Source: an uncultured delta proteobacterium (GTDB lineage Bacteria > Desulfobacterota > BSN033 > UBA1163). From it: 64,000 bases of DNA. A program made the translations under genes and the position numbers. Within the stretch, counting starts at the first letter, position 1; each line of letters opens with the position of its first letter. Below the pieces are notes generated by a model, which saw only the letters and a program-made list of their open reading frames with translations, had not been told where the DNA came from and made no database searches. Positions 34,509 to 59,316 of the stretch are shown piece after piece. The stretch spans positions 160,001-224,000 of the forward strand of contig CAVPSJ010000014.1 of NCBI GenBank assembly GCA_963708295.1, read 5' to 3'.

Positions 34509-35906
34509 ATGAAGGAGTACAAAGTTTTTCTTAGAGAGGATGAGATTCCGAAGCAATGGTACAATATCCAGGCAGACTTACCCAGCCCCCTGCAGCCGCC
34601 CCTCCACCCGGCAACAAAACAACCGATCGGTCCTCAAGACCTTGCCCCCGTTTTCCCCATGAATCTCATCGAGCAGGAGGTCAACACCAAGGATCGGTGG
34701 ATTGATATCCCCCAAGAGGTGATGGAAAAACTCCTCATCTGGAGGCCTACTCCTCTCCGTCGGGCTCATGGATTAGAAAAAGCCCTGGGAACACCCGCCA
34801 GGATTTATTACAAGGATGAAGGGGTGAGCCCTCCAGGAAGCCATAAGCCGAACACAGCCGTTGCACAGGCTTATTACAACAAGGTTTTTGGGATTAAACG
34901 GATTGCGACAGAAACCGGTGCAGGGCAATGGGGAAGCGCCCTTAGTTTTGCTTGCGGTCTCTTCGGCCTGGAGTGTAAGGTCTATATGGTCAGGATCAGT
35001 TATGACCAAAAACCTTATCGCCGCTTGATGATGAATACCTGGGGAGCCAACTGTGTTCCCAGTCCGAGCAAAGACACCAATGTGGGGAGAAAGATTCTGG
35101 AGGCGAACCCGGATTCTCCCGGAAGTCTCGGAATTGCCATCAGCGAGGCTGTTGAAGACGCGGTCACGTCAAAGGACACCCGATACTCCCTGGGAAGCGT
35201 TTTGAACCATGTCCTCATGCATCAAACCATCATCGGTCTTGAGGCGAAGAAGCAGTTGGAGAAATTTGGGGAGAAGAAAGTCGATATCGTCACCGGGTGT
35301 GCGGGCGGGGGAAGCAACTTTGGTGGCCTTGCCTTTCCTTTTGTCCTGGATAAGATCAATGGTGCCAAGATTACCATTATTCCCGCGGAACCCACTTCTT
35401 GCCCCACCATGACCCGGGCGCCGTTTGTCTATGACTTTGGGGATAACGTAGGAATGGCACCCATGGTTCCGATGCACAGTCTCGGACATTCCTTTATCCC
35501 GGCACCCATCCATGCGGGAGGACTTCGCTATCATGGGATGGCTCCCCTCGTCAGCCAATTGATCGTTGACGAACTCTTGGAGCCTCGGGCTTATAATCAA
35601 CTCGAGTGCTATGCCAATGCGGTCCTCTGGGCGAGGACCGAAGGGTTCATCCCCGCACCTGAGACCAGTCATGGTATCTCTGTCGTAGTTGAAGAAGCGA
35701 AGAAGGCGAAGCAAGAGGGAAAGGAAAAAGTCATCCTTCTCAACTGGAGCGGCCATGGCATCATGGACCTCGGTGGTTATGAATCTTATTTCAGCGGAAG
35801 GCTCGTTGACTACCCGCTACCACAGGAAGAGATGATGAAATCCCTGAAGGATATTGAAGGATGGCCGAAACCCAAGATTATGAAAATGGGTAAAGTCGTT
35901 GGATAA
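34509..35906 (+). CDS. trpB2: TrpB2 (stand-alone tryptophan synthase beta-like, PLP)
   Basis: [47 protein letters not shown]; no adjacent trpA. Confidence 0.93.
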
Positions 35907-36065: not shown

Positions 36066-36335
36066 ATGATTGAAGAACATGATGCCCTGATCATCCGTTG
36101 CCCTCAGCTGGGTGGCGAGATTCCCTTCCGATATTGTCGAACCGTTAATGAACACCTGCCATGCCGGAGAATAATGGTCTGCTGGGAGTTTCGAATGGAG
36201 ATATCAAAATTCATAGGGGAACATTATTCCGTTGATCAAGTCCAATGCGCCTTGACACCTCCGACCAAGACAAGGCTTGATACCATTCTCGAACTCATCG
36301 AAAAGGCCAAGAAGATCAAAGAAGAAGGAGAGTGA
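36066..36335 (+). CDS. Small Cys-rich hypothetical protein
   Basis: CPQLGG..FRYC..PC..CW pattern; tightly coupled to the next gene. Confidence 0.65.
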   Translation: MIEEHDALIIRCPQLGGEIPFRYCRTVNEHLPCRRIMVCWEFRMEISKFIGEHYSVDQVQCALTPPTKTRLDTILELIEKAKKIKEEGE

Positions 36336-36339
36336 CAGG

Positions 36340-37434
36340 ATGCTGATCTCTGATCGATTAAGAAATATTAAGCCCTCGGGGGTGAGGCGAATCTTTGATT
36401 TGGCACGCCGGATGAAAGATCCGATCAATCTGAGCATCGGCGAACCCGATTTTGATATCCCGGAACCTCTTAAAGAGGAAGGCATTAAATGGATCAAAAA
36501 GGGGTTCAACAAATATACTCCCACCCAGGGCATCCCTGAATTGAGGGAAAAAATCGCCTCCCATTTAAAGAAGAAGGGGATCCATTTCGAGGAGGTCATG
36601 GTGACAGCGGGCGTGACCGGCGGTCTTCTCCTGGCCAGCCTTGCCCTGATCAACCCGGGGGATGAAGTCATCATCCCCGATCCGTTTTTTGTGATGTATG
36701 AGTATCAGGTTCTTCTTATGGGAGGGGTCCCTGTCTTCGTCGATACCTATCCTGATTTCCGACTGAAGGAGGAAGAATTCATCAAGAAATTATCGAAGAA
36801 GACGAAGTTCATTATCATCAACAGCCCGAATAACCCCACGGGGGCGATCTTTCCAAAGGAAGATCTGATGGGGGTGGTCCGGACCGCCCGGGAAAGAAAT
36901 CTTTTAATTCTCTCCGATGACATCTACGATAACTTTGTTTTCGACGCCCCTTCGTGCCCCTGTATCGGACAATTCTATGAGAACACGTTAACGTTGGGCG
37001 GATTCTCAAAGGGTTGGGGGATGACCGGTTGGAGACTGGGTTATGCGGCCGGCCCTAAGGAGATCCTCCAGCAGATGATCACCCTTCAGCAATATACATT
37101 CTCCAGTGTCAACTCCTTTGCTCAGAAAGCAGCGATCAAGGCCCTGGACTTCAATGTGGAGGATTACATTAAAGGCTATAAAAAGAAAAGAGATTTGATC
37201 TACCATGGGCTCAAAGAAAAGTTTAATGTCGAAAAGCCACAAGGCGCTTTTTATATCTTTCCGGAGGTCCCGGGAGGAAACGGAGAGGCCTTTGTAGAAA
37301 AAGCCATCGAACAGAATCTCTTTATTGTGCCGGGTAGCGTTTTTTCCAAGAGAAATACCCACGTCAGGATCTCATTTGCAGCATCGGATGAAACCCTTCA
37401 AAAAGGCATTGAGACCCTTAATCGAATCAGCTAA
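36340..37434 (+). CDS. Class I/II PLP aminotransferase (aspartate/aromatic type)
   Basis: IGEPDF, NSPNNPTG, SDDIY, GFSKGWGMTGWRLG. Confidence 0.92.
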   Translation: MLISDRLRNIKPSGVRRIFDLARRMKDPINLSIGEPDFDIPEPLKEEGIKWIKKGFNKYTPTQGIPELREKIASHLKKKGIHFEEVMVTAGVTGGLLLASLALINPGDEVIIPDPFFVMYEYQVLLMGGVPVFVDTYPDFRLKEEEFIKKLSKKTKFIIINSPNNPTGAIFPKEDLMGVVRTARERNLLILSDDIYDNFVFDAPSCPCIGQFYENTLTLGGFSKGWGMTGWRLGYAAGPKEILQQMITLQQYTFSSVNSFAQKAAIKALDFNVEDYIKGYKKKRDLIYHGLKEKFNVEKPQGAFYIFPEVPGGNGEAFVEKAIEQNLFIVPGSVFSKRNTHVRISFAASDETLQKGIETLNRIS

Positions 37435-37717: not shown

Positions 37718-38257
37718 ATGCCAATCGATTTGCAGGCAGTGTGCGAAATCATTGAAAGGCACGGCTATCAAAAGGCTTCCCTGATCGGAATCCTCCAGGA
37801 TATTCAGGGGGAAATGAGCTACCTTCCTCGAAAGGCATTGGTTCAGGTAGGGAAAAGCCTCGATATTCCCCTGACTCACATTTACGAAGTTGCGACTTTC
37901 TATAAGGCCTTCAGTCTCGAGCCCAGGGGAAAACATACCATCCAGGTATGCCTGGGAACAGCCTGCCACGTCCGAGGAGGGTCCAGAGTTCTCGACTATC
38001 TTGAGAATCGACTGAAGGTAAAACCGGGAGGAACCACAAAAGACCTATCCTTTACCTTGGAAAGTGTCAACTGTCTGGGGGCCTGCGCGTTGGGACCCAT
38101 GATGGTGATTGATAAGAAATATTACGGAAAAATCAACACGAATAAGATTGAATCCATTCTGGAAAAATATCAGTCTCGAAATGAATCACCGCATCCAAAG
38201 TATCTCCGATCTTCGGAAGCTCCGCCAGTCCTTGAAAAAGTTAAGAGACAGGAATAG
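37718..38257 (+). CDS. NuoE/HydC-like [2Fe-2S] subunit
   Basis: [20 protein letters not shown]. Confidence 0.9.
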
Positions 38258-40036
38258 GCCGTCCGTCACAATCTGCGCAGGAACGGGCTGTCAGGCAACG
38301 GGTGCTTTAGAAGTGGTGGAGAAATTCAAACAAGAAATCTTAAGCCGGCATCTGGAGGAGAAAATTGATGTTCGCGCCAGCGGATGCCACGGTTTTTGCG
38401 AGCGAGGGCCCCTGGTGGTCATCCGGCCTGAGAAGATCTGCTACATGAATGTAGAGGCGACGGACGCGTCTCAGATTCTTGCGGACACGGTTCTCGATGG
38501 GAAAGTGATCGACCGCCTTCTCTACCAGGACCCCTTGACGAAGGAAAAGATCATTCACGAAGAGGAAATCCCATTTTACAAATTTCAGCAGAGGGTCGTT
38601 TTCGGGAGCAACGGAGAGATCGATCCAACTCGGATCGATGACTATATTGCGTTGGGCGGTTACCAGGGGTTGGAAAAGGTCTTATCCGAAAAAACCCCGG
38701 AAGAGGTTATTGAAACCATCAAACAATCCGGTCTGAGAGGCCGGGGGGGTGGAGGTTTTCCAACCGGCGCAAAATGGGAGTCTTGTCGAAAAGCACGGGG
38801 GAAGGAAAAGTTTGTCATCTGTAACGCCGATGAAGGAGACCCCGGCGCTTATATGGATCGGTCCCTGCTGGAGGGGAACCCGCACCGTGTGATTGAAGGA
38901 ATGCTCATCGGAGCTTATGCCATTGGTTCCGGGGAAGGGTACGTTTATGTGCGCAATGAGTATCCCCTCGCTGTTGCAAATCTCAGCCGCGCTATCGACC
39001 AGGCGAAGGATTACGGTCTGCTCGGAAAGAATATTCTGGGGTCGGGATTTACATTCGTCCTCAAGATCAGCCGCGGGGGAGGGGCCTTCGTGTGCGGCGA
39101 GTCAACCGCCCTCATGGCTTCTCTGGAGGGAAAAGTCGGAGAGCCTCGGGCCAAATATATTCACACCGTCGAGCACGGCCTCTGGGATCAACCCAGCAAC
39201 CTGAATAATGTTGAGACATGGGCCAATGTCCCCATCATCATCAACCGGGGTGTTGATTGGTATACCTCCATCGGGACAGAAGGGTCAAAGGGAACGAAGA
39301 TTTTCTCGCTGGTCGGAAAGATTAACAATACCGGTCTTGTCGAGGTCCCGATGGGAATCACGTTGCGCCAGATCGTTTACGATATCGGCGGTGGCATTCC
39401 GGGAAGCAAGCGCTTCAAGGCCATCCAGACAGGGGGGCCCTCCGGCGGCTGTATTCCGGAGACGCTTCTTGACCTTCCCATCGATTTCGATCGACTTCAG
39501 GATGCCGGATCCATGATGGGTTCGGGCGGCATGATCGTCATGGATGAAGACAATTGTATGGTGGACATGGCTCGATATTTTGTTGGGTTTCTTCAGGAGG
39601 AATCGTGCGGCAAATGTGTTCCCTGCCGGGAGGGACTTCAACAGATGGGCGAGATCCTTAACCGGATCTGCGAAGGGAACGGGGGGAGGGAGACATTCAA
39701 CTTCTGCAAAACCTCTCTCAGGTGATGGTTGACACATCGCTTTGCGGCCTCGGACTAACAGCACCCAACCCTGTCTTGTCAACCGTCCGATATTTCAGAG
39801 AGGAATACGAAGCCCATATTAGAGATAGAAAGTGCCCGGCCAAATACTGTAAAGGGCTTATCTCTCTTTCCATCGACCCTGAAAAGTGCACCGGCTGCGG
39901 AGCTTGTTTGAAGGTTTGTCCTGTGGATGCGATTGCCGGTGAGAAAAAGAAACCTCATCAGCTCGATGGAGATAAATGCGTAAAGTGCCGGGCCTGCTAC
40001 GAGGCCTGTATGTTTGATGCAGTACTAATTCAATAA
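38181..40036 (+). CDS. NuoF/HydB-like FMN/NADH subunit with N-terminal [2Fe-2S] and C-terminal 2x[4Fe-4S]; frameshift near 39690
   Basis: [58 protein letters not shown]. Confidence 0.9.
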
Positions 40037-40148: not shown

Positions 40149-41465
40149 ATGATCACTTTAACCATTAACGGCAAAAAAGTAAGAGCCAAAAAAGATACGA
40201 CCCTTTTGGAAATCTGCCGGAAGATGTCCATCTCGATTCCGACGCTCTGTTATCATCCGGATCTCGGACCTCATGGTTCCTGCCGGTTTTGCACCGTGGA
40301 AGTATTCGAAAATGGAAAGGCCCGAATGGTGACCTCCTGCAATTATCCAGCTCGGGAGGGGATCAAAGTGGAAACTCATTCTGACAAGGTCATTCAGGCA
40401 CGACGAGTTCTGGTCGAGCTTCTCCTGGCACGATGTCCTCAGGTTCCCTTCGTTCAGAATTTCGCCCGGAAACTGGGTGTTGAAAAAACTCCCTTCAAGA
40501 CTGAAAATCCGGAAAACGATTGCATCCTTTGCGGTCTTTGTGTTCGCACCTGCCATGAAATCGTGGGGGCCAATGCCATCGGGTTTTCCAACAGAGGAAC
40601 TCAGAAAAAGATTGGGACACCTTTTGAGATCGATTCCGAACAGTGTCTGGCCTGCGGGGCCTGTGAATATATCTGCCCCACCGGAGCCGTTAAAATGGAG
40701 ATGAACCGGATCAGGAAAATCAAGCGATCCGACACCGGGACGCTGCGGTATTGCCGGTATATGCGCCTCGGATTACTCGATTTTATGGTCTGTTCGAACG
40801 GCTTCGAATGCTGGCGTTGCGAGGTGGACCAGGGGATGGAAGACCGGTTTGGAACCCACCCCGCCTTTGCCGTAAAACCAGCGAAAGACAAGCACCCTTT
40901 GCAGGTGAATGGATTTACCTTCTACCCCGAACTTTTTTACAGCGAAGAACATCTCTGGGCCAGACCCATGGACCGGAATATCAAGGTAGGACTCAACGAC
41001 CTAGTTTGCACCTTTGCCATGGAAGCAGATTCCATCCGCCTTCCTCCAGCGGGCACCGTTCTGAAGAAGAGACAGGTCCTTGCGGAAATTACGGCAACGG
41101 GGAAAAAGGCAAGAGTCCGTTCTCCTTTTACGGGAACGATTTCTGTCATCAACCACGACGTGGAAGAATCTCCGAACCTGGCCTGGAGGGATCCCTATGG
41201 CCGGGGATGGCTGCTCATCTTGCATCCTGATCCTCCGGATCAGATTTTGCAGCTTTATTCGGGTGAACCCGCAAAGACCTGGTTTACAAAACAGGCCACG
41301 AATTTGGCCACGCTTTTTATAAAATGGGCTCCCAAGCCCTCTAAAAAAGAGTCCCAGGATGGGCAGTTGATTCGAAAGATCGTCCGTGATCGCTGGGATC
41401 AGCTGACCGAGATCCTGCTGCATTCCAACGTGAAAAAAAGAGATGCTGAAAGAAGTTCAGGTTGA
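40149..41465 (+). CDS. NuoG/HydA N-terminal FeS module fused to a Cys4 motif and a GcvH-like domain
   Basis: IPTLC..GSCRFC..SC, CILCGLCVRTC, CLACGACEYICP; HLWAR..KVGL..SPFTG..DPYGRGWL. Confidence 0.8.
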   Translation: MITLTINGKKVRAKKDTTLLEICRKMSISIPTLCYHPDLGPHGSCRFCTVEVFENGKARMVTSCNYPAREGIKVETHSDKVIQARRVLVELLLARCPQVPFVQNFARKLGVEKTPFKTENPENDCILCGLCVRTCHEIVGANAIGFSNRGTQKKIGTPFEIDSEQCLACGACEYICPTGAVKMEMNRIRKIKRSDTGTLRYCRYMRLGLLDFMVCSNGFECWRCEVDQGMEDRFGTHPAFAVKPAKDKHPLQVNGFTFYPELFYSEEHLWARPMDRNIKVGLNDLVCTFAMEADSIRLPPAGTVLKKRQVLAEITATGKKARVRSPFTGTISVINHDVEESPNLAWRDPYGRGWLLILHPDPPDQILQLYSGEPAKTWFTKQATNLATLFIKWAPKPSKKESQDGQLIRKIVRDRWDQLTEILLHSNVKKRDAERSSG

Positions 41466-41565: not shown

Positions 41566-44500
41566 ATGTCAGATAAAGAACAAAGAGTAGTTCTTGGAAA
41601 CGAAGCGATTGCCAGAGGCGTGGTGGAGAGCGGGTGTCAATTTTTTGCGGCCTATCCCGGCACTCCCAGCTCGGAGATCCTCCCCGCGATTGTTCGTTTC
41701 AAAAAGGAAAACAATCTGGAGATCTATGTTGAATGGTCTACGAATGAGAAAGTCGCTTTTGAGAATGCGTTGGTGGCCTCTTATACAGGGAAACGAGCTG
41801 CCGTGGCCATGAAGCAGGTGGGGTTGAATGTCGCGACGGATCCCCTGATGAGCTCCGCCTATATCGGAACGATCGGAGGGTTTGTCATCATCAGTTGTGA
41901 CGATCCTGGGCCCTATTCTTCCCAGACCGAACAGGACACCCGGTTTATGGCCATGTTTGCGAAGGTCCCGGTTTTTGATCCTGCCAGTCCGAAAGAGGCC
42001 CAAGAGATGTTACCCATTGCCTTTGAGCTTTCCGAAAAATATCAGATTCCCGTTATCCTCCGTCCCGTCATGAGGGTCTCCCATGCCCAGCAAACCATCA
42101 CGTTCAACCCTATTCACAGAGTTGAAAGGAAAGCCGATTTTCAGCGCAATCCCCAGCGATGGAGCGCCACACCCAGATTTCGGTTTTTGCTCCATAAGCA
42201 GCTCAACGTGAAGCTTCAAAAAATTGCCGAAGAGTTCAGTTCCATGACCTCTCTCAATTTCGTCGAGCATGATCGGGAAAGAGCTTCTCTCGGAATCATC
42301 GCCGGAGGGATCGGTTATGCGATTGCCCGGGATATCGTCAATGAAATGGGCCTCCGGGAAGCGATTCCGATTCTCAAGATCGGGACTCCTTTCCCCTTTC
42401 CGAAAGAGATCGTAGAGGCCTTTATTAAGAAATGTGATCATGTGCTGATTCTCGAAGAAACGGAGCCGGTGATCGAGCTTCAAATACGTGACAAGTCGAA
42501 AGTCACCGGGAGATTGGACGGAAGGATTCCCAACGAAGGAGAAATGCTTCCCGAAGTCATTACCCAGGTGATCTCGGACCTATGTAAAAAGTTCTCCATT
42601 CCCGTAGGGGAGGTTCCTTCTTCAGGACCTCTTGAGAAGCTGGTGGCCGGGCTGGGCTTGCCCATTCGTCGACCGACGCTTTGTTCGGGATGTCCCCATC
42701 GGGCTTCTTTCTTTGCCATCAAGAAAGCTTTCCCGAATGGGATTTTCCCGAGTGACATCGGGTGTTACACCCTGGGGATGAATATGGAGTCTGTCGATAC
42801 CTGCCACGACATGGGAGCAGCCATCACCTTCGCCAGCGGTCTCTACCAGACTTTTCATCAGGATGGCAAAGAGATTCCCATCATCTCCACGATCGGAGAT
42901 TCAACGTTCTATCATTCCGGAGCTCCAGGACTCCTGAATTCCGTCTATAATGGCTCCCGTTTCATTCTTGTGATCCTCGACAACTCCATTACAGCCATGA
43001 CGGGTATGCAGCCGACCCCGGAATCCGGAACCACGGCGGATGGCCATCCGGGCAAAACCCTTTCTCTCGAAGAACTGGTGAAAGGATGTGGCGTCAAATA
43101 CATTCGCGTCGTCAATCCTTACGACATCAAGGGCATGATTCTCGAGGCGAGAAAGGCCTACGAGTATACCAAACAGCACGAGGGGGGGATGGCCGTACTG
43201 ATTTCCCGTTATCCCTGCATCACCTATCAAAAAGAGATCCTCAAGGTTAAGCCTAACAAGGTTGATATCCGCCATATGCCTCCTCCGGAGAAAGATCTTT
43301 CCCAGGTGAAAAGCGGGGCCATGCCGCAATCGCTTTTGCCTGTGTATCAAGACAGAATCGCACCCTGCACCGGGGCCTGTCCAATCCAGGTCGATGCCAG
43401 GGGCTATATCGATCTCATATCAAAAGGAAAGTTTGATGAAGCGCTCGCTCTTGTTCGTCAGCAGAACCCATTCCCTGCCATCACGGGCAGACTCTGCGCC
43501 CGGCCGTGCGAGAAGATCTGCCGAAGGGGGGATGTGGATCAACCGATTGCAATCGACCTTTTGAAACGGTTCGTTGCAGAACGGGAAAACGCCCCTGTCA
43601 TTTAATATCACGCCAGGCCCTGAAAAGGCAGCAAAGGTGGCCATTGTGGGATCTGGCCCCACAGGGCTGATGGCTGCTTATGATTTGCGACGCCATGGCT
43701 ATCCGGTGACCGTCTTTGAGGCCCTTCCTCTACCCGGCGGGACCATGGCCGTGGGGACAGGGCGATTTCGACTGCCGGAGGAGGTACTCAATCGAGAGAT
43801 CGATATCGTCAAGAAACTTGGAGCGAATTTCAAATTCAATACGCGGATTGGTGGCGAGACCTCTCTCAACAGCCTCAGGGCTCAAGGGTTCAAGGCCATC
43901 CTTCTGGCCACAGGAGCTCACAAAGCCAAAAAGTTGAATCTTCCAGGACACGAGGCCAAAGGTGTCGTGGATACCCTGACGTTTCTTAAGAAAGTTACCC
44001 TGAAACAAAAACTTCCTGCTTTTTCGAGGGTGGTGGTGCTGGGTGGAAGTGACCGGGCCCTGGATGCAGCACGGACAGCGCTGAGACTTGGAGCGAAATC
44101 GGTGACGGTTCTATTCAGCCGTTCGCAAAGGGAAATGCCTGCCGAGGCTTCGGAAATCGCTGAGGCAGAGAGAGAGGGAGTGTCCTTTCAGTTTTTCTCG
44201 GTTCCGTCAAAGATTACAGCTTCCCAGGGTAAAGCGATCGGGATCTCCTTCAGAAAAGCCATTCTCAGCGCTCCCACAAGCCTCGGGAGAACAAGGGTGC
44301 AATCTTTACAAGGCCATGAGAAAAAATTGAAGGTTGATCTGGTCATTACCTCACCCACCCTATGTTCCGGATCTTTCTTACTTTGGAGAAGTCGTTCCGC
44401 AAACTGCCTGGAATACAATCCAGGTCGACCCGCTGACATTAGCTACGTCTGTGAAGGGAGTCTTTGCTGGAGGGGATGCAGTCACAGGCCCCAAGAATTT

Positions 44501-45092
44501 TATTGAAGGTCTGGCAGCAGGAAGAAAGGCGGCCCTCTCTATCCATCGTTATTTAAAAGGGGAAGCCCTGGGGAAAAACCGCGAGGTGGAAGGAGCTTCC
44601 ACAGAACTGGTCTCGGTCAATATCGACAGAGTGGAAACCCAGCCAAGAGTGGAGGAATCTGTTCTTCCCGTTGAATCCCGCAAGAAGAATTTTAAGGAGG
44701 TTCATCTTCTACCTTCCGAAGAGGCGTTGATCGCAGAGGCGAAGAGATGCCTCCACTGCGGGGCTTGCACTCAATGCGACACGTGTTCGATCCAGTGCCC
44801 GGAGGGAGCGATTTCCAAGACGGAAGGCGGCTATGTCATCGATTATAGCAAGTGCACAGGCTGCCGGGTTTGTGTCCAGGAGTGCCCGACCTCAGCGATC
44901 GAGATGCCGGCCGTGGGCGCCTGTATTGCCTGCGGGTTCTGTCTCAAGCGGTTCGAATGTCCCTCGTTGCTCAAGGGAGAGGACGGCCGCGTGGAAATCG
45001 ATCGATTAACCTGCGTGGACTGCGGCCTGTGCGCAGAGGTGTGCTGTCAGGAAGGAATCTATCAGGTCAGCTGGATGATGATACAAATGTGA
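41566..45092 (+). CDS. iorA: Indolepyruvate:ferredoxin oxidoreductase alpha with inserted GltD/NfnB-like flavin module; frameshifts near 43590 and 44360
   Basis: LGNEAIARG, YPGTPSSE, MKQVGLNVA, CSGCPH, SDIGCY, IGDSTFYHSG; APC..CP..NPFP..C; GSGPTG; FAGGD; C-terminal CIACGFC..FECP. Confidence 0.82.
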
Positions 45093-45333: not shown

Positions 45334-45900
45334 ATGAATATCCAGATGATCATCTCCGGTGTGGGCGGGCAGGGCGTTCTCCTGGTGACACGGATCTTTT
45401 CAGCCTTTTCCCTTCAAGAAGGGTACCCCCTCATTGGTTCGGAAGACCACGGGATGAGCCAGCGGGGAGGATCGGTGATGACCCATTTGAAAATTGGAAA
45501 TTTCGATAGCCCCCTTGTGAAGAAGGGGAGCGCTGACATTCTCTTATCCCTCGAAAAAAATGAAGCCTACAAGACCCTTCACTATCTCCGAGACGGCGGT
45601 CTCTGTTTTATCAATGCCTCAGATCCGAACGATATGAACCGGGAGATCATGGGGTACCTGAAAGAAAGAGGGATGGAAGCTTATGTGGTTGGAGCGGACC
45701 AGCTTGCGAGGGGTATGGGATCGCCTCAATCGGCCAATATCGCTCTCATCGGGTTTGCCGCATCCCATCCCAGGTTTCCCTTTCCCCATGACAAACTCAG
45801 AGACGCCATCGACCGGGTGACCCCCCAGAGGTTTCGGGAAGCGAGTCTCAAAGTATTTGAGAAAGGGCTCGCTGAAGGCCGAAAATCTGTAAAACCGTAA
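45334..45900 (+). CDS. iorB: Indolepyruvate oxidoreductase beta subunit
   Basis: GVGGQG, HGMSQRGGSV. Confidence 0.9.
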   Translation: MNIQMIISGVGGQGVLLVTRIFSAFSLQEGYPLIGSEDHGMSQRGGSVMTHLKIGNFDSPLVKKGSADILLSLEKNEAYKTLHYLRDGGLCFINASDPNDMNREIMGYLKERGMEAYVVGADQLARGMGSPQSANIALIGFAASHPRFPFPHDKLRDAIDRVTPQRFREASLKVFEKGLAEGRKSVKP

Positions 45901-47598: not shown

Positions 47599-49893
47599 TC
47601 AACCTTGTTTTTCTTTCAGTGCGGCCAATACCTTTTCCGGGGTGATAGGAAGATCTTTGATCCTCACCCCTACGGCATCATAAATGGCATTGGCGATGGC
47701 CGGTGCGGTCGGGACTGATCCCGGTTCACCGATTCCCTTGGCCCCAAAGGGACCGAAGGGATCATTCGTTTCGATCACAATCGGCTCAATATTCGGAACA
47801 TCCTTTGCGGTGAGCATCTTATAGTCGAGGAAGTTTGAATTCATTACCTTGCCATCCTTCAGGATGAGTCTTTCAGTCAGAGCATAACCGATTCCCATGG
47901 TCGCCCCGCCATAAACCTGACCTTCCAGGAGCATGGGATTGATCGCTTTCCCTACGTCGTGGGCAGCAATATATTTGAGGATCTTCACCTGACCGGTTTC
48001 CTTATCCACCTCGACCTCTACGCCGTGTGTCCCATAGGCATAGGTGACCGAGAGATTCCCTTTAAATTCTCTGTCCAAATTCTCGTTGGGGGGATCGTAA
48101 AAGTAGTCTGCCATGATCATGCTTCCACCGGCGGTATAGTGGGCCGCTCTCAGGACCTTTCCCAGGGGAGACTTCTTTTCGAGGTCCTTCTTTGAAAAGA
48201 CCGTTCTATCCCGGATATCTAAATCCTCAGGGTTTTCACCCAATGACTTGGCGGCCACTTCGAGGAGTTGGTTCTTTACTTTCTTCGCTGCCCCCCGGGC
48301 AGAATTTCCAGCCACAAAGGTGGTTCGACTCGCGTGGGCCCCGACATCCCAGGGACAGATATCCGTATCCGTATGGGTGACGACGATATCTTCCACTCTA
48401 ACTCCGAGTTCTTCAGCGGTGATTTGAGCGATCACCGTATCCGAGCCCTGTCCCATATCGGTCGCACCGGTGATCACGTTGACCGTTCCGAAATCGTCGA
48501 TTTTGATGATGGTCCCGCACCCGTCCGATTTATAGACCCGGGCGCCTCCGCCCACATGGATCATCGAAGCCATCCCGATTCCTCTCCCGTCTCCTCTTCC
48601 CCGGTTCTGGCGCCAATCCAACTTTTCTGCCACGACATCGATGCACTCCCTCAGGCCGCAGGTATTGATCTTGAAACTCTGGGGCGTCACTTCACCGGGG
48701 GTGTTGGCATTTCTCATTCTGAAGTCAAGAGGGTCGATCCCGGCCATCTCCGCTAAGATATCAATCTGGGAATCGATCGCAAAGGTCGCTTGAGGGTTTC
48801 CATACCCCCGCATGGCCTGAGAATAGGTATTGTTGGTATAAACACATTTGGCGACATACCGGATATTGGGCACTTTATAGAGGGAGGAGATGGGCATCAT
48901 CATCACCGAAGGCGTGGTGGCGCCCCAGGAAGTATAGGCCCCATTGTCGAGGATCATTCGGATATCGCGAAAGGTCAGTCTTCCATCCTTGGTACAACCC
49001 TGAGCAATATCGATAATCGCAGGCTGTCTGGGAGAGGTGGCAAAAAACTCCTCTTCCCGATTAAAGAGGATCTTGACAGGTTTCCGGGTCTTGTGAGCTA
49101 ATAAGATAGCGACATACTCGAAGGCATAGGTATCGAGTTTGCTTCCAAATCCGCCGCCGATCATCGTTTTGATCACGCGAACCTTCCTGTCCTTCAATCC
49201 CATCGTAGCGAGGGCGTCCATGTAATCCCGCTGAGCGAGAGACGGAATCTGAGTGATGCTGTACATCGTGAGATTATTCTTCTGGTCGAACTGAGCCACA
49301 CAGCCACTCGTTCCCAGGCAACAGTGAGCCACCCAGGTCACTCTAAAACGATCCTCAGCGATGTGAGCAGAGTTTTTTCTTGCTTCATCCACATCTCCCG
49401 CCATTAGCCTCCAGGGGAGGTTGAGGACGTTGGTCGGCTTTTTCTCTTTGCCGCCCACATGTTCTTCGTGGATCAGGACGGCCCCTTCTTTCATGGCTTC
49501 CTCAGGGTCGAAGATGGCAGGAAGAATTTCATATTCGACCTTGATCAGATGGAGCGCCTCCTCGGCGATCTCGGGATCTGCGGCAGCGACCGCAGCGATC
49601 TCATCCCTAAACGAGCAGACCTTATTTGCCTTGAGAGGAACATTGTCTTTATAAACACCAAACTTAATGGGAGGGATGTTGTAACCCGTTAAGACGGCCT
49701 TCACCCCGGGAAGCTTTTCCGCTTTAGAGGTATCGATGCTTTTTATCTTTGCATGGGCATGGGAACTGTAAAGAATTTTTCCATAAAGCATCCCCGGAAT
49801 CTTCAGGTCGTGAATATAAACCGCCTTGCCCGTGACCTTTTCCTCCGCATCCATCTTGGGGATTCGTTTTCCAACGTTGATAAACTCTTCCAT
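47599..49893 (-). CDS. Xanthine dehydrogenase-family Mo large subunit
   Basis: IGGGFGSK, AMRGYG, MGQG, ASR, EGQVYGG, GAKGIGEP (catalytic Glu present). Confidence 0.92.
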   Translation of the reverse strand: MEEFINVGKRIPKMDAEEKVTGKAVYIHDLKIPGMLYGKILYSSHAHAKIKSIDTSKAEKLPGVKAVLTGYNIPPIKFGVYKDNVPLKANKVCSFRDEIAAVAAADPEIAEEALHLIKVEYEILPAIFDPEEAMKEGAVLIHEEHVGGKEKKPTNVLNLPWRLMAGDVDEARKNSAHIAEDRFRVTWVAHCCLGTSGCVAQFDQKNNLTMYSITQIPSLAQRDYMDALATMGLKDRKVRVIKTMIGGGFGSKLDTYAFEYVAILLAHKTRKPVKILFNREEEFFATSPRQPAIIDIAQGCTKDGRLTFRDIRMILDNGAYTSWGATTPSVMMMPISSLYKVPNIRYVAKCVYTNNTYSQAMRGYGNPQATFAIDSQIDILAEMAGIDPLDFRMRNANTPGEVTPQSFKINTCGLRECIDVVAEKLDWRQNRGRGDGRGIGMASMIHVGGGARVYKSDGCGTIIKIDDFGTVNVITGATDMGQGSDTVIAQITAEELGVRVEDIVVTHTDTDICPWDVGAHASRTTFVAGNSARGAAKKVKNQLLEVAAKSLGENPEDLDIRDRTVFSKKDLEKKSPLGKVLRAAHYTAGGSMIMADYFYDPPNENLDREFKGNLSVTYAYGTHGVEVEVDKETGQVKILKYIAAHDVGKAINPMLLEGQVYGGATMGIGYALTERLILKDGKVMNSNFLDYKMLTAKDVPNIEPIVIETNDPFGPFGAKGIGEPGSVPTAPAIANAIYDAVGVRIKDLPITPEKVLAALKEKQG

Positions 49894-49979
49894 TATGGCC
49901 TCCATGCTTCTAAATCCGAAATTCGAATATCGAATCCAGGAAACAAATCCTAAATTCAAATGATCAAATTTCCAAAACT

Positions 49980-50341
49980 TTATTCGCTTTTTCTTAAAAT
50001 AGATCCAAAAATATTCGTAAGTTCTGAAGCTTCGTTCTCTAAATCTTTTCGATCACTTTCCTGCTCCAGTTCATCACAAGGGTCGATTAACCTTAACCAA
50101 TATCGGCTTTCCTTGGCTTCTTTACAGCAGATCTTTATCCTCATAATAAAATCTTGCTTAGCGCTTCATTAGCTTCAATATAATTCGAACCGACAGAGCC
50201 AGAGGCCCTGATAAGCTGCTTGCCATCTTCAATATTCCCTGTTGTTTTGGATAATTTTTTTATGAAAGTTCTAACCTTTCTTGCGAAATTAAGTGTACGA
50301 TCTTCTAAGTCATATGTTTTTGAATTTTGAGTTTTGGTCAT
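49980..50341 (-). CDS. Four helix bundle protein (23S rRNA IVS protein family); frameshift near 50155
   Basis: DLEDRT..F, QLIRASGSVGSNYIEANE, then KEAKESRYWL in the next frame; low GC. Confidence 0.82.
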
Positions 50342-50413
50342 TTGAAATTGGGTTTCGAGTTGATCCCTGCTGGGATGCTTCGCCCGGATTTCGTGCTTCG
50401 AATTTATATTTTT

Positions 50414-50878
50414 TCACTGACCACTGGCTGCTTTGATGGCCTGGACGATTTGCAGATAACCCGTGCAGCGGCACAGATTCCCGGCAATTCCTGTTCGAAT
50501 CTCCGCCTCGGTTGGTTTTGGATTCTCGTCCAGGAGCGCTTTAGCAGAGAGAACCATGCCCGGGGTGCAGAAACCGCATTGGATGGCTCCGTATTCGATG
50601 AAAGCCTTCTGGATGGGGTGGAGTTTTCCCTGGGCATCGGTGAGGCCTTCAATGGTGACCACACTCTTCCCATCCACCTCCATGGCAGGGAAGATGCAGG
50701 AGTTGACGGACTTTCCATCCAAAAGGACGGTGCAGGCGCCGCATTCTCCCATGCCACATCCTTCTTTCGTTCCTGTCAGTTCCAATTGGTTTCTCAATAA
50801 TTGCAGAAGAGTGAGATGAGGTTCGATCTCCACCTCCGCAGACTCACCATTTAACGTGAAACGCAACGACTTCTTCAT
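50414..50878 (-). CDS. Mo-hydroxylase 2x[2Fe-2S] small subunit
   Basis: GTKEGCGMGECGACTV, QCGFCTPG, GNLCRCTGY. Confidence 0.93.
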   Translation of the reverse strand: MKKSLRFTLNGESAEVEIEPHLTLLQLLRNQLELTGTKEGCGMGECGACTVLLDGKSVNSCIFPAMEVDGKSVVTIEGLTDAQGKLHPIQKAFIEYGAIQCGFCTPGMVLSAKALLDENPKPTEAEIRTGIAGNLCRCTGYLQIVQAIKAASGQ

Positions 50879-51075
50879 TGTTTAAGCTCCTTTATTGCTA
50901 AAAATCCGAAATCCGAATATCGGGCGAAGCGTCCGCCTCGGACCAATTCGAAACAAATCCAAATTTCCAATTTTCAAAATTCAAAACTTGTTCGTTTGGG
51001 TCATTTGTATTTCGAAAATTCGTGCTTGTTTCGAACTTCGGATTTCGTGCTTCGAATTTTGTCTTTAAACCATGG

Positions 51076-52047
51076 TTACCACAGCCTTTCCGGGAAGAGG
51101 GTCTCTTCAGGCTGAACCACTCTCTCGATGGATTTCATCGCCATTCGCTTGACCAGGACTCGAACCATATCTTTGCGGTACCACGCCTCTCCCCGAAGAG
51201 TGTCCCTCGGTTGGGCTTCCCGGGAGGCGGTATCGGCCGCCTCCTCCAGGAGTTCGTCACTCAGTTTTCTACCCTTGAGAAGGGCTTCGGCCTTCAATGC
51301 CCTCATCGGCGTCGGCGCTGCCACTCCCAAAGCGATCCTCACGTCCTTGCAGAGGATTTCATCTTCCTCCATCTGATGGAGGATGGTAGAAATAGGGGAA
51401 GCCGTACAGAGCAGGTCTGAACAGGTGACTTTGTTCTTATCGAGTGATAGGAGAACGGAGACCCCTAAGATAGGAAGGTCCAACGCAAGTCGCCTCTGAA
51501 GTTTATGGTAAGCGGAACCGGTATTCGGCAAAAGCTTAGGGACCCATAGCTCTTTAACCATTTCCCCTGTTTTCAAAACGGTTTCCCCCGGCCCCGTGAA
51601 GAACTCCTCAATGGGAACGATTCTTTCTTCCTTAACGCTTTTGATCCTGACCTGCGTTCCGAGAACCAGAAGGGGAGTGGCCGTATCCGCCGAGGGGGCA
51701 GCGGTACAGATGTTCCCGCCAATGGTTGCCACATTACGGATCTGGATAGAGCCGAGATAATCCACCGCATCGGCTAAGGCGGAGAAATCTTTTTTGATGA
51801 TTTCGGATTTCTCAATCGCCCGGTGAGTGACCATCGGTCCGATACTCAAAGATCCATTGTATTGAATCCGGTCCAGACCCGGGATTCCCTGCAGAGAGAT
51901 AAGGATATCTGGAACGATCGTTTTCTGTTTGATCATGACGATGACATCCGTCCCCCCCGCAATCCATTTTGCTTTCTCGCCATATTGATCAAAAAGGCTG
52001 AGAGCTTCGTCGAAGGTCTTTGGTTTAAAATAATCAAACGTTTTCAT
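51076..52047 (-). CDS. Mo-hydroxylase FAD medium subunit
   Basis: AGGTDV, IRNVATIGGN..APSAD; no HcrB-type FeS insert. Confidence 0.92.
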   Translation of the reverse strand: MKTFDYFKPKTFDEALSLFDQYGEKAKWIAGGTDVIVMIKQKTIVPDILISLQGIPGLDRIQYNGSLSIGPMVTHRAIEKSEIIKKDFSALADAVDYLGSIQIRNVATIGGNICTAAPSADTATPLLVLGTQVRIKSVKEERIVPIEEFFTGPGETVLKTGEMVKELWVPKLLPNTGSAYHKLQRRLALDLPILGVSVLLSLDKNKVTCSDLLCTASPISTILHQMEEDEILCKDVRIALGVAAPTPMRALKAEALLKGRKLSDELLEEAADTASREAQPRDTLRGEAWYRKDMVRVLVKRMAMKSIERVVQPEETLFPERLW

Positions 52048-52110
52048 AGAAGCCTCCGATATCCCCTTTCGACAAATTCCCCATCGGGGAGGATGAATAT
52101 TGGCCGAGTT

Positions 52111-53418
52111 CTATCTCACAAGATCTGACAAAACCAAAACGGTCCAGTAGGGGGAGAGACATAGGAGAATATTTGCAATGATGTAAGTCGGTATGTAGTA
52201 TACGGCGCCTCTGAAGACAGTTCCGATGGGAATATCCTTGGCCATCCCGGCGACGACATAACAACAGATCCCGATCGGTGGCATAAGGGCTCCCATGGTG
52301 GTGGTGATCGTAATGATCTGCCCATACCAGATCGGGTCATAACCCATTCCCTGGACGATCGGGTAGAAGATGGGGAGGGAGATTAAGAGAAAAGCCAACG
52401 CATCCATGACGCAACCGCCGATCATATAGCAGAAGAGGATGATCCAGAGGAGCATCCAATTTGGCAACGCGAGCGTACTGATCCACGATGCGGCTTCGAA
52501 GGGGAGCCGGGTCACGGCAAGAAAACGGCCAAAAATCGTAGCGCCAGCAACAATCATAAAAACCAGGCATGAAATACGAAGCGTGTCAACACAGGAAGCA
52601 ACAAATCCCTTCCATGTCAGTTTTTTTCTTATAATACAGATAATCAGGCCCACAGCGCTGCTTGCGGCCGCAGCCTCTGTCGCGGTTACCATCCCCGTAA
52701 AGAGAGCAACCATGATGATAAGAAATAGGATGACGATATCGATCGCATCGGGAAGGGACCTCCATCTTTCTTTCCAGGTACTTTTAGGCCCTTTTGGACC
52801 CCAGTCCGGATGTCGATAACAGATGTAGACGACGGTGGCTGCAATTAAAATGGTCAGGATGGCACTGGGGATCACATTTCCGAAAAATAGTTTACCAATG
52901 GACTGTCCGGTGTAGATTGCATAAACAACCAGTACAATACTCGGAGGGATCATGACGCCGAGGGTGGAGCCAGCCACGACCGACCCTGCACTGAGCATCG
53001 GATGGTAGTTATACTTTTTCATTTCCGGGATGGCCACGGTACTCATGGTTGCCGCCGTTGCCGTATTTGAGCCGCTGATGGCCGAAAAAGCAGCACAGGC
53101 CATAATCGTGGTGATCGCTAAACCGCCTTTATAATGGCCGAACCATTTGTAGGTCGTAAAATAGAGCGTATTATTATAGCCTCCGTAGTGGGCAAATTCT
53201 CCCACCAGGATGAACATCGGAATGACCGTCAGGCCATAATTCGAGAAGATATTCCACATATCGGTGCCGATCATTCCAAAGGCTGCTTTGAAACCGGCCA
53301 CATAACTAAACCCTAAGAACCCAACCAATGCCATCGTAAACCCGACGGGGATCCTGAGCAGGAAAAGAACGACGAACATGAGTAGAATTCCGTAGACTCC
53401 AACGATCGGACCTTCCAT
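52111..53418 (-). CDS. dctM: TRAP transporter large permease
   Basis: IPMF, ISGSNTATA, GTLG-like STLGVMIPPS, TATEAA, PPIG. Confidence 0.92.
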   Translation of the reverse strand: MEGPIVGVYGILLMFVVLFLLRIPVGFTMALVGFLGFSYVAGFKAAFGMIGTDMWNIFSNYGLTVIPMFILVGEFAHYGGYNNTLYFTTYKWFGHYKGGLAITTIMACAAFSAISGSNTATAATMSTVAIPEMKKYNYHPMLSAGSVVAGSTLGVMIPPSIVLVVYAIYTGQSIGKLFFGNVIPSAILTILIAATVVYICYRHPDWGPKGPKSTWKERWRSLPDAIDIVILFLIIMVALFTGMVTATEAAAASSAVGLIICIIRKKLTWKGFVASCVDTLRISCLVFMIVAGATIFGRFLAVTRLPFEAASWISTLALPNWMLLWIILFCYMIGGCVMDALAFLLISLPIFYPIVQGMGYDPIWYGQIITITTTMGALMPPIGICCYVVAGMAKDIPIGTVFRGAVYYIPTYIIANILLCLSPYWTVLVLSDLVR

Positions 53419-53497
53419 CTCCTATTCAGTCCTCCTTGCTCTTGAAGTTAATCCGCAATTCGCAATCCGCATTCCGCAATTGACTTCCATCCTTCAG

Positions 53498-53986
53498 TCA
53501 GTCCTCCTTGCTTTTCAAGTTCTTGACAAAATCGATAATCAGTGTGAGGGAGAAGACTGCGAATCCGAAGGAAACGCTGTAGATAAAAGGATGGAAAATG
53601 ATTTTCAATGTTTCCGAAACCTCTCCTGATTTCGATATCTTCATGCCCCAGACGAATACCTGCCAGGAGATGATGGCAAAGAAAATCATCGTAATGAAAT
53701 AATTGATCCCGTCGAGAACGCGATTGACCCGCTTCGGAAACTTTTCTGTCAAGATGTCGACAACGATATGATCTTTTCTTTTCTGGGTGTAGCCGAGTGC
53801 AAAGGCGATGACGATGGCTCCTAAGAACCCAACGGTTTCATAAGCTCCTCGCCAGGTCGATTTAATAAAGGGGACTCTCAAGAAGGCATTCGTTGTGGCG
53901 ATGGCCATAAGGAGGAGTACGGCGACACTGCCTAAGACCATCAGGATTTTGTTGAGGAAATCATTTATCCTTTCGAGAGTATGCAT
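53498..53986 (-). CDS. dctQ: TRAP transporter small permease
   Basis: Four TM segments; HIVVD motif; between dctP and dctM. Confidence 0.88.
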   Translation of the reverse strand: MHTLERINDFLNKILMVLGSVAVLLLMAIATTNAFLRVPFIKSTWRGAYETVGFLGAIVIAFALGYTQKRKDHIVVDILTEKFPKRVNRVLDGINYFITMIFFAIISWQVFVWGMKISKSGEVSETLKIIFHPFIYSVSFGFAVFSLTLIIDFVKNLKSKED

Positions 53987-54023
53987 TCTTTTCCCTCGCC
54001 CCAATCTCCACAGACTCATCGGT

Positions 54024-54239
54024 AAGGCGGTTGGGTGTGCTTAGGCGGCCCAAAATAAAATAGACAATTACCATTGCCGGGCGATTTATCGCTCATACCT
54101 TTACAGCGGTACCTTTAAACGTTTGGCCCTCCTCATTTTCAGACACATCCTAGGCCCCCTCCAGCTGACATCGCGTGTTACCCATAAAACATCGTAAAAA
54201 ACCGCTTGGTAAAGATTGGAAAGCATACTCAACCGCCTT
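54024..54239. repeat. 216-bp element closed by a 19-bp inverted repeat
   Basis: AAGGCGGTTGGGTGTGCTT ... AAGCATACTCAACCGCCTT; right end homologous to ~59555-59620. Confidence 0.6.
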
Positions 54240-54300
54240 TTTCATAACAATATCTGGATAAATAGGGTGCACGGAGAATCCCCGGGCACCCTATGGTTCT

Positions 54301-55323: not shown

Positions 55324-55364
55324 TTTCTCTAGACCTCCTTTCTAAGTCTGATGAGCCATTCGCC

Positions 55365-55396
55365 GTATACTGTATACAATAAACCCGATTTGTCAA
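55365..55396 (-). promoter_or_regulatory. Promoter (TTGACA) with GntR-like operator ATTGTATACAGTATAC
   Basis: Identical 16-mer to 15377-15392; 42 bp upstream of dctP. Confidence 0.7.
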
Positions 55397-59302: not shown

Positions 59303-59316
59303 CTCATTCCTCCTGT

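Follow-up and report, generated by a model that had tools for sequence, protein, structure and literature searches.

Electron bifurcation in the Bfu enzymes takes place at a site formed by the cluster B1, flavin mononucleotide (FMN) and the cluster C1 (PMC11829005), and the Type 2 scheme of these enzymes comprises the clusters A1, A2 and A4 without A3 and A5 (Schut et al. 2022, PMC9304861); here and below, statements on cited papers refer to their accessible parts. In Wor-Bfu (WorABCSL) of Acetomicrobium mobile (9MQX; PMC12318220), which has the BfuB and BfuA closest to those described here among the solved structures, the subunits for the third substrate feed electrons into A4, from where they take the route A4-A2-A1. 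The predicted Type 2 enzyme Por-Bfu, found in syntrophic Proteobacteria and Chloroflexi, is encoded by 2-oxoacid oxidoreductase genes beside BfuABC, and its BfuA is without A3 (PMC9304861). The same arrangement is seen in a stretch of 64,000 nucleotides from an uncultured delta proteobacterium (assembly GCA_963708295.1, contig CAVPSJ010000014.1, positions 160,001 to 224,000 of the forward strand), called the window in the following. Its oxidoreductase belongs to the indolepyruvate oxidoreductase (IOR) type and has the core, the thiamine pyrophosphate (TPP) motif, the proximal cluster, the C-terminal ferredoxin and the iorB gene in common with IorAB (TIGR03336/TIGR03334). Compared with IorAB, however, the IorA of the window has about 545 extra residues with four more clusters and flavin adenine dinucleotide (FAD). 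From the sequences and the predicted structures we consider it rather probable that this long IorA works together with BfuABC, that indolepyruvate is oxidised and the electrons are split to NAD+ (nicotinamide adenine dinucleotide) and ferredoxin at BfuBC, and that the insert acts as a wire and a socket and not as an NAD(P) site.

The iorA gene and its intact relatives

The iorA gene is covered by three overlapping open reading frames (ORFs) on the forward strand, 41566-43605 (679 aa), 43574-44506 and 44334-45092. Their Pfam matches follow each other in the order POR_N, PFOR_II, TPP_enzyme_C, Fer4_20 (profile positions 30-109), Pyr_redox_2, Fer4_20 (1-39) and Fer4, with the first ORF extending to the first Fer4_20 part, the second containing Pyr_redox_2, and the third the other Fer4_20 part and the ferredoxins. 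A single reading frame spans the transition from the TPP domain to the insert. The parts are as follows, with residues numbered according to the intact relative P0002 (P and L numbers denote proteins and loci of the set analysed):

41566..43218, + strand: IorA core with domains I and II, the TPP domain and the ligands of the proximal [4Fe-4S] cluster (POR_N/PFOR_II/TPP_enzyme_C)
43219..43353, + strand: start of the IorA ferredoxin (its first strand), followed by the N-terminal PorD-like part; retained in the 700-aa form
43354..43590, + strand: Fe-S domain of the insert with two [4Fe-4S] clusters, the proximal one bound by three Cys and Lys667 (Fer4_20 30-109)
43589..43605, + strand: frameshift 1 (+1), near 43590, at a short base run where the Fe-S domain is hinged to the FAD domain
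43598..44759, + strand: FAD domain with an embedded, apparently eroded NAD(P)H domain (Pyr_redox_2, Fer4_20 1-39)
44355..44359, + strand: frameshift 2 (+1), near 44357, at a short base run; one extra base compared with L003
44760..44906, + strand: PorD-like 2x[4Fe-4S] ferredoxin, C-terminal part of the inserted unit (PorD models 1060-1113)
44916..45092, + strand: IorA-type 2x[4Fe-4S] ferredoxin tail with 8 Cys (88-89 of 89 relatives)
45334..45900, + strand: IorB, the beta subunit (Pfam POR; IOR beta models match best, below cut-off)

Searching with the junction region yielded 248 proteins; among the 120 listed, 89 are uninterrupted, 1158-1188 aa long, and share the domain order. A preliminary description of this DNA, made from its sequence alone, had proposed that the flavoprotein is an insertion and not a neighbouring gene, that the TPP domain reads in frame into Fe-S motifs before two frameshifts follow, and that the IorA-type ferredoxin tail comes last. 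The ORFs, the search with the junction region, and the alignments with P0002 and L003 bear this out. P0002 is 93% identical to the first window frame (residues 1-698) and 91% to the second (678-931), and then matches the third up to residue 1168. The L003 protein (1178 aa) is stop-free and 94-95% identical to the first two window pieces, and 8 genomic copies of the long form are without internal stop. In the tree the window IorA is nearest to L003, which stems from an uncultured deltaproteobacterial genome, and then to Syntrophaceae genomes. The annotation of the listed relatives is divided between 'IOR alpha', 'glutamate synthase beta-like', and 'FAD-dependent oxidoreductase'.

Because the 89 relatives are continuous, the window has further split genes, and the breaks are at short base runs, the frameshifts are most likely sequencing or assembly errors. 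A third frameshift of the operon, in the bfuB gene near 39682, is likewise at a short base run. Split genes are also found at 886-2389 and 57572-61850 of the window, at L009:4743-5829 and at L026:10001-11652, which is consistent with indel noise in these assemblies. The continuous relatives and the other split genes of the window also rule out programmed frameshifting. Three of the eight long loci (L003:12023-12070, L005:12023-12064, L020:12026-12091) and also the protein P0005 contain, in the hinge from the Fe-S to the FAD domain, an in-frame stretch of about 30-60 bases that is G/C-rich and palindrome-like; it looks like a repeat element tolerated within the coding region. Scans for promoters and terminators were uninformative (10 promoter-like sites with 8.7 expected).

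Anatomy of the insert

By its ligands, the long IorA holds TPP, seven [4Fe-4S] clusters, and FAD. In the core, Cys373, Cys376, Cys400 and Gly444/Asp445 are present in all 89 relatives, and Cys551 is at least 90% conserved. The long form P0002 reaches 641.5 bits with TIGR03336 (cut-off 650.9) and the short form P0108 660.3, which is above the cut-off; the score of the long form goes along with a displaced tail, while the TPP motif, the proximal Cys and the adjacent iorB are all present. The iorB gene follows iorA in all 24 loci with a complete iorA. In the Fe-S domain of the insert, Cys601, 605, 644, 648 and 652 as well as Lys667, which aligns with K170 of StnC, are found in 89/89, and two Cys at the end of the FAD domain complete the distal cluster.

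The NCBIfam model PRK12771 (NF009410) spans residues 590-1114 in a single match of 459.8 bits (cut-off 516); PorD models cover 1060-1113 as well as 588-645 of the short form P0108. The stand-alone subunit of L030 passes NF009410 with 579.7 bits, the insert is 37-38% identical to the L030 and L031 subunits over 592-1113, and its PorD-like ferredoxin, with 8 Cys in 89/89, matches these stand-alone delta subunits. The matches together with the stand-alone genes show that the insert is an entire subunit of the PorD-with-flavoprotein (PRK12771/DsrL) type, a delta-type ferredoxin enclosing a permuted GltD-like flavoprotein. The preliminary term 'GltD/NfnB-like module' was therefore right as to the flavoprotein but not as to the canonical domain order, since the Pfam matches show a circular permutation, and the 2x[4Fe-4S] domain that it called extra is present as the PorD-like part of the inserted unit and not as a separate addition. 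Comparison with the plain IorA P0124 and the secondary structure place the insertion point within IorA's own ferredoxin, after its first strand and before its first Cys, and the limits of the part at 43219..43353 follow from the junctions seen in 23 loci and in 9 short proteins, again compared with P0124. An AlphaFold2 model of P0002 has a mean predicted local distance difference test (pLDDT) of 91.8 and a predicted template modelling score of 0.77. The structures nearest to the insert are the A subunits of Nfn-Bfu (9BOV, 8OH5, 9N5U), followed by NfnB and GltD. The insert is under purifying selection, with a ratio of nonsynonymous to synonymous substitution rates (dN/dS) of about 0.03-0.19 in five pairs; for the NAD(P) domain it is 0.11-0.16 in four of the five pairs and not computable in the fifth, with dS near saturation.

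The L030 and L031 genes (L030:1519-5807, L031:4901-9168; WOR-3 and Latescibacterota genomes) have the order porC, PorD-flavoprotein subunit, porA, porB, and their four-subunit oxidoreductase may be NAD(P)-linked. Fusions of IorA with a flavoprotein are not restricted to the close family, as 39 of 149 newly listed representatives at 50% identity hold both parts. Only P0121 and P0122 among these 39 have the tandem-ferredoxin tail; most others have the flavoprotein followed by one ferredoxin. Although P0121 and P0122 have the layout of the window, they contain canonical NADP motifs and Glu at position 667, as in NfnB. Further fusions among P0123-P0185 have 33-44% identity, a single ferredoxin and retained NAD(P) glycines, P0126 in addition a fused IorB, and are candidates for single-chain arylpyruvate:NADP+ oxidoreductases.

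BfuABC genes upstream of iorA

The genes upstream of iorA encode the following parts:

37718..38257, + strand: BfuC, NuoE/HydC-like, with [2Fe-2S] C1 (PF01257; NF005722 above cut-off)
38181..40036, + strand: BfuB, NuoF/HydB-like, with FMN and the ligands of B1-B5; split by the frameshift near 39682
40149..41465, + strand: BfuA, 438 aa, with [2Fe-2S] A1 and 2x[4Fe-4S] (A2, A4); no GltD-like domain
about 40731-40853, + strand: four-Cys segment of BfuA (Cys202, 215, 221, 224)
about 40935-41279, + strand: GcvH-like domain of BfuA, below the GcvH cut-offs

By sequence these three proteins make up a BfuABC of Type 2 that is closest to WorABC. BfuA is assigned to Type 2 because A1, A2 and A4 are present and there is neither A3 nor a catalytic domain, and without a catalytic domain of its own it needs a partner. 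In the alignment of 93 BfuA relatives, out of 120 listed, Cys34/45/48/64 are invariant, as are seven of the eight ferredoxin-domain Cys of the window protein, and columns 92-125 contain no His/Cys ligand set for A3. The closest structure of BfuA is WorA (9MQX_A), collinear over residues 2-182, and that of the intact L003 BfuB is WorB (9MQX_B). The Cys/His ligands of B1-B5 are present in the two pieces of the window BfuB and in seven complete loci, and the C-terminal ligands in the cut L019 copy. The bifurcation criteria of Losey are Ala/Glu and Met at positions 232 and 234 of Thermotoga maritima HydB and the SLBB motif at 427-431 (PMC7311640). With a constant offset of 9, Ala223, Met225 and the SLBB motif at 418-422 are found in the window and in seven loci; Losey's Phe criterion (numbered 367) has no mapping by the same offset. 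The FMN-site motif near 303 contains Phe in L003 as in five aligned Bfu structures, in a column that we take to be Losey's Phe-not-Tyr position.

The four Cys of the BfuA segment (202, 215, 221, 224) are invariant in 93/93 relatives. The segment could not be assigned to a known domain: it has no NCBIfam match at 1e-8, no PDB sequence match at E up to 10, WorA included, and no Atlas match, with only 8 close matches found among 9 short candidates. In the GcvH-like tail columns 315-318 are variable and there is no conserved lipoyl Lys at the tip of the hairpin, at what we assume to be the canonical position.

NAD(P) site and proximal-cluster ligand of the insert

The preliminary description had pointed to an altered second Rossmann motif, which is confirmed at 44042-44059 and is a trait of the family. 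In an alignment of the 89 intact close relatives with 36 others (2 tandem forms, 25 other fusions, 9 non-IorA modules), Gly828, the third Gly of GxGxxA, is retained in only 14/89 compared with 36/36, the other residues being Asn, Ser, and Thr. The same holds for Gly931 (13/89), Ala929 (17/89) and Pro732 (18/89), each present in 36/36 others, and for Arg851 (3/89 compared with 29/36) in the segment 850-852, the counterpart of the NADP 2'-phosphate motif of NfnB. Arg830 is new in the close family (83/89) and not among the common residues elsewhere. The nine stand-alone or non-IorA modules retain the NAD(P) motifs. In contrast, the FAD glycines 695, 697, 700, 783 and 969 are found in 89/89, the FAD-binding residues overall in 85-89/89 and the Fe-S Cys of insert and tail in 88-89/89, and Arg735, corresponding to R239 of StnC, is invariant. 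Judged from this alignment, the NAD(P)H-binding residues of the insert are eroded across the close family, and the earlier suggestion that the oxidoreductase is wired directly to a pyridine-nucleotide site is probably wrong.

Lys667, the ligand of the proximal cluster, is found in 89/89, which is the StnC type and differs from the Glu of NfnB; the FAD of StnC is non-bifurcating (PMC10482914). Because of this Lys ligand the insert FAD was rejected as bifurcation site, and it is probably not the flavin that bifurcates. The electrons are instead expected to be split at the FMN site of BfuBC, with BfuA as the link. The earlier idea of a bifurcation together with the upstream NuoEF-like genes was correct in that these genes belong together, but it had not mentioned BfuA.

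Predicted contact between BfuA and the insert

Residues 590-1165 of P0002 and 1-420 of the BfuA relative P0270 were folded as a pair, each with its own alignment. The model scores 0.74 compared with 0.00 for the best of three controls; among solved complexes the score mark is attained by 116 of 157, among mismatched pairs by 2 of 215, numbers that are approximate since own alignments were used. The runs share at least 85% of the contacts, and the pLDDT of the partners is at least 74. The tightest contacts are those of BfuA 221-231, in the four-Cys segment, with residues 828, 851-858 and 903-910 on the eroded nucleotide face of the insert, so that 828, 851-852 and 855-858 belong to the interface, as do BfuA 170-174 on the A4 side and, from the insert, residues 600-606 and 645-651, which surround the proximal cluster. 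Conservation is higher in the interface than around it (0.91 vs 0.78 in BfuA, 0.81 vs 0.74 in the insert), and the charges of the two sides are complementary: clade-specific basic residues of the insert (Lys650 in 86/89, Lys or Arg855 in 78/89, Lys976 in 80/89) are paired with Glu184, Asp211, Glu220 and Asp227 of BfuA, all found in 93/93. The four-Cys segment of BfuA is therefore predicted to dock in the former NAD(P)H cleft, with the A4 side near the proximal cluster of the insert. The GcvH-like domain is outside the predicted interface.

Long and short forms

The 31 loci surveyed in GTDB genomes comprise 8 long and 16 short forms, 5 loci cut before the form can be read, and 2 with stand-alone subunits. 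The short sister form, about 700 aa long, is without residues 597-1064, so that the halves of the PorD-like ferredoxin are joined, and its core is about 80-89% identical to the long form. The short-form junctions compared share one register, and the linker of L021 is shorter. In a quick LG+G4 tree of the IorA core (65 rows), which has long outgroup branches, the short forms appear at three places inside the long forms. Topology tests with 54 rows reject a monophyly of the long forms (approximately unbiased (AU) test, p 0.005), while they allow a single short clade (AU p 0.225), so that several independent losses are not demonstrated. The sequences indicate that the long form is ancestral in the clade and that the flavin core has been lost one to three times. 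A recent insertion of the flavin core into a short form is disfavoured by the nesting of short within long forms and by the distant P0121 and P0122, which are long. P0129 (686 aa) is a distant IorA (49%) with two ferredoxin domains and no flavin core, and possibly an independent deletion.

In all eight long loci genes similar to nuoF and nuoG are found immediately upstream of iorA, and a nuoE-like gene in seven (L019 is cut); these BfuCBA genes are located between the aminotransferase gene and iorA. BfuABC genes are absent from all 15 short loci whose upstream DNA is visible and from all five cut loci; L012 shows no upstream gene. The retained 1.65-kb IorA core separates the flavin core from BfuABC, so that the two have not been lost by one deletion, and no intermediate was seen among the surveyed loci. 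Fisher's p of 2e-6 for the co-occurrence ignores kinship and is not relied on, and in the independent-pairs test the second trait set is identical to the first and 1-3 pairs cannot reach significance.

Gene neighbourhood

The neighbouring genes of the window are:

34509..35906, + strand: TrpB2, stand-alone tryptophan synthase beta (NF009057, TIGR01415 above cut-off)
36066..36335, + strand: conserved Cys-containing protein of 89 aa, between trpB2 and the aminotransferase gene
36277..37434, + strand: class I aminotransferase (PF00155)
47599..63957, - strand: convergent cluster with a xanthine-dehydrogenase-family enzyme, a tripartite ATP-independent periplasmic (TRAP) transporter, a universal stress protein (USP), aryl-CoA (coenzyme A) ligase, hydantoinase A/B and the large subunit of a B12 mutase

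The trpB2 gene is found in 26 of the 29 IorA loci, the remaining three being cut by contig ends, and the aminotransferase gene in 23 with a fragment in one more. The 89-aa protein, which has no Pfam or NCBIfam match, is also encoded in 26 of the 29, in long and short forms alike. A family of the NfnA type is absent among the conserved neighbours of the IorA loci. Salvage of indole by enzymes of the TrpB2 type has been documented (PMC11085991), and an aromatic-type enzyme of the IOR family converts indolepyruvate to indoleacetyl-CoA (bioRxiv 2026.01.29.702580).

By its gene content the convergent cluster resembles the anaerobic indoleacetate (iaa) gene set, which we take as context and not as part of the enzyme. 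The anaerobic indoleacetate pathway contains molybdoenzyme and hydantoinase steps. It also includes a CoA ligase and a mutase, and its operons are also found in sulfate reducers (PMC8360864, PMC9613470). The first genes of the cluster follow iorB in three of the 31 loci (L003, L015, L023) with 81-98% identity. Other neighbours vary: the short-form locus L002 contains split HdrA genes and an HdrC-GltD fusion directly upstream of trpB2 (L002:2476-7721), a flavoenzyme of the old yellow enzyme (OYE)/BaiCD family is encoded upstream of trpB2 in eight loci (L005:113-2206 and seven others), and genes of one glyoxalase/epimerase-like group are common to 12 loci and the window. In the window the upstream region 20234-33000 contains an adenine-deaminase-like gene, a cyclase, and an NMT1-type ATP-binding cassette (ABC) transporter instead of the OYE/BaiCD flavoenzyme.

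Proposed mechanism

The long IorA, IorB, BfuA, BfuB and BfuC would form a soluble complex of five subunits, which we call Ior-Bfu. IorAB would catalyse the oxidative decarboxylation of indolepyruvate, or another arylpyruvate, to the acyl-CoA; the action on arylpyruvates including indolepyruvate is suggested by the family and the trpB2/aminotransferase context. Electrons would pass from TPP via the proximal cluster and the two ferredoxin domains to the clusters of the insert, with or without FAD, and then along A4-A2-A1 of BfuA as in Wor-Bfu to the B1-FMN-C1 site, which would split them between NAD+ and ferredoxin; we infer this order of clusters and the role of FAD. The 2-oxoacid couple is near -500 mV. 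With NADH near -280 mV and ferredoxin near -500 mV, the split would make the oxidation strongly favourable and the carboxylation harder than with ferredoxin alone, so that the oxidative direction is favoured. As half of the electrons would go to NAD+, a step near equilibrium would be pulled forward at low substrate. TrpB2, the aminotransferase and Ior-Bfu could together convert indole via tryptophan and indolepyruvate to indoleacetyl-CoA, a route that suggests how anaerobes could activate free indole via tryptophan. The ancestor would have been an NAD(P)-linked IOR, and the short form, having lost both the flavin core and BfuABC, would be a reversion to a ferredoxin-only enzyme.

More tentatively, the Rossmann pocket itself may have become a socket, in which the acidic four-Cys segment mimics NADP+, lies next to the FAD and holds a redox-active Fe or Fe-S centre that takes the flavin electrons into the bifurcating core; the complex would then drive an anaerobic route from indole via tryptophan to indoleacetate in uncultured Desulfobacterota. 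We regard this as possible but doubtful. If true, it would be a new mode of coupling a catalytic module to BfuABC, and the evolution of the socket would be visible in stages across the relatives, from an intact NADP site over an eroded site to deletion of the module.

Alternative explanations

Several points weigh against the proposed mechanism. DsrL-1 is without the Tyr-Arg-Arg motif and yet uses NAD(H) (PMC7596348), so that loss of this motif alone would mean use of NAD(H) and not lost binding; moreover, Gly828 is retained in those 14 relatives, and basal members keep both Gly828 and Gly931. In the complex model, proteins of other records (P0002, P0270) stood in for those of the window, and, because the insert and the N-terminal half of BfuA resemble parts of one polypeptide in the solved Nfn-Bfu enzymes, the favourable complex score may partly come from this likeness. 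In the AlphaFold2 model of BfuA alone, residues 122-199 and 202-247 have a pLDDT below 50. The co-occurrence of long form and BfuABC is not phylogenetically independent; with 1-3 independent pairs, and a single short clade not rejected, the association is suggestive only, and as it was scored within the surveyed loci, BfuABC could be encoded elsewhere in the short-form genomes. The iaa-like cluster is adjacent in only three of the 31 loci, two of them short-form, the hosts are uncultured, the substrate cannot be read from the sequence (bioRxiv 2026.01.29.702580), and the window's own operon copy contains three frameshifts. These frameshifts, and a few database proteins (P0005, P0025) that terminate early near the same places, would fit a chimeric assembly or a pseudogene. 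However, the 89 intact proteins and the 8 intact genomic copies refute an artefact or dead gene for the family as a whole, and frameshifts split the genes for biotin carboxylase and hydantoinase elsewhere in the window as well, and the breaks are at short base runs; for the window, too, we consider this explanation highly improbable.

The insert could still be a pyridine-nucleotide site, NAD(H)-switched or NADP-active, in a long IorAB that is self-contained like the Azoarcus 2-oxoglutarate:NADP+ oxidoreductase (KGOR), reportedly a flavoprotein-linked 2-oxoacid oxidoreductase of the same domain order, with BfuABC as a co-regulated but separate redox balancer. The DsrL-1 precedent, the invariance of the FAD residues and Arg735, the retention of Gly828, Ala929 and Gly931 in P0121, P0122 and 25 other IorA-flavoprotein fusions, and Asp829, which is also found in 11 of those 25, would agree with this. 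It is nevertheless unlikely, as several separate NAD(P) determinants have changed together, including the pyrophosphate-loop Gly found in 36/36 elsewhere, position 828 varies freely between Asn, Ser, Gly and Thr, the pocket is the predicted BfuA site, and BfuA without a catalytic domain needs a partner. Alternatively, the complex might form with a vestigial or absent FAD, the insert being a scaffold with an Fe-S wire and the four-Cys segment a structural zinc site as in WorA, with an unchanged net reaction. Such a wire would agree with the predicted contacts of BfuA 170-174 with the surroundings of the proximal cluster, with the four-Cys zinc finger of WorA and Por-BfuA (PMC12318220), and with the identity of the NAD(P) domain (0.59), the lowest of the folded domains; but the conservation of the FAD-binding residues (85-89/89) and the failure of the four-Cys segment to match WorA or any other PDB sequence speak against it, and we think there is only a small chance that it is right. 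Smaller still is the chance of a split, Stn-like Nfn-Bfu transhydrogenase fused to IOR, in which NADPH enters at the insert and low-potential electrons of BfuBC drive the carboxylation of indoleacetyl-CoA for tryptophan salvage. For this, the closest structures of the insert are Nfn-BfuA subunits, the insert and the BfuA N-terminus jointly cover the PRK12814 model, TrpB2 is a salvage enzyme (PMC11085991), and reductive running has been proposed for Por-Bfu (PMC9304861). But Arg851, binding the 2'-phosphate of NADP, is kept in only 3/89, electrons of Nfn-Bfu enter via A3 (PMC11829005), which is missing in this BfuA, and a catabolic-looking cluster is next in the window.

Comparison with known systems

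We found no description of the Ior-Bfu architecture in the literature within reach; subscription papers were out of reach, and Supplementary Table 1 of PMC9304861 could list such loci. The word 'indolepyruvate' does not occur in the text and one supplement file of PMC9304861, the accessible parts of a tree of the GltD family name no IorA fusion (PMC10134865), and those of a 2026 review on pyruvate oxidoreductases contain no such fusion (PMC13768988). Neither did we find a Bfu-coupled 2-oxoacid oxidoreductase reported as characterised, Por-Bfu being a prediction. Por-Bfu has four POR subunits (DEFG) and, in the accessible text, no described flavoprotein, whereas the window encodes a two-subunit IorA/IorB with an inserted FAD module and a BfuA that, unlike that of Por-Bfu as described, has a four-Cys segment and a GcvH-like tail.

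Nfn-Bfu/StnABC (9BOV, 8OH5, 9N5U; PMC11829005, PMC10482914) contains the same permuted GltD-like module, the Lys-ligated proximal cluster, and the BfuBC core. However, its module is part of BfuA, binds NADPH and feeds A3, while that of the window is part of IorA, has apparently eroded NADPH residues and faces a BfuA without A3. NfnB has Glu as proximal ligand, the canonical domain order, and NfnA as partner, in contrast to Lys667 and the permuted order of the insert. DsrL/PRK12771 shares the order of the insert, with 2x[4Fe-4S], FAD with embedded NAD(P) domain, linker, and 2x[4Fe-4S] (PMC7596348). But PorD-flavoprotein and DsrL units are separate subunits, and DsrL is encoded by a stand-alone gene in a dsrAB organism and not linked to a 2-oxoacid oxidoreductase, although DsrL-like genes with such a link are mentioned (PMC7596348); the unit of the window is nested in iorA. 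The sister short form exceeds IorAB by an extra ferredoxin only. The locus is a compact five-gene candidate and comes with a natural control, the 700-aa form without flavin core and BfuABC. With it one could test in what way flavin-based bifurcation is connected to a thiamine enzyme, in which direction, oxidative or reductive, such enzymes run, and whether protein docking can be a new use of an NAD(P)H site.

The proposed entry via A4 and the oxidation of a low-potential substrate with NAD+ and ferredoxin are as in Wor-Bfu. The catalytic sites differ, with tungstopterin in Wor-Bfu and TPP here, and so does the coupling, which uses a C-terminal helix and WorS in Wor-Bfu and is predicted for the window to use a four-Cys segment reaching into a Rossmann pocket. 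By its sequence and models Ior-Bfu would therefore work like Wor-Bfu and the predicted Por-Bfu, yet be outside the definitions of Por-Bfu, Nfn-Bfu, NfnB, and DsrL; if this is true, it is a previously undescribed form of electron-bifurcating enzyme.

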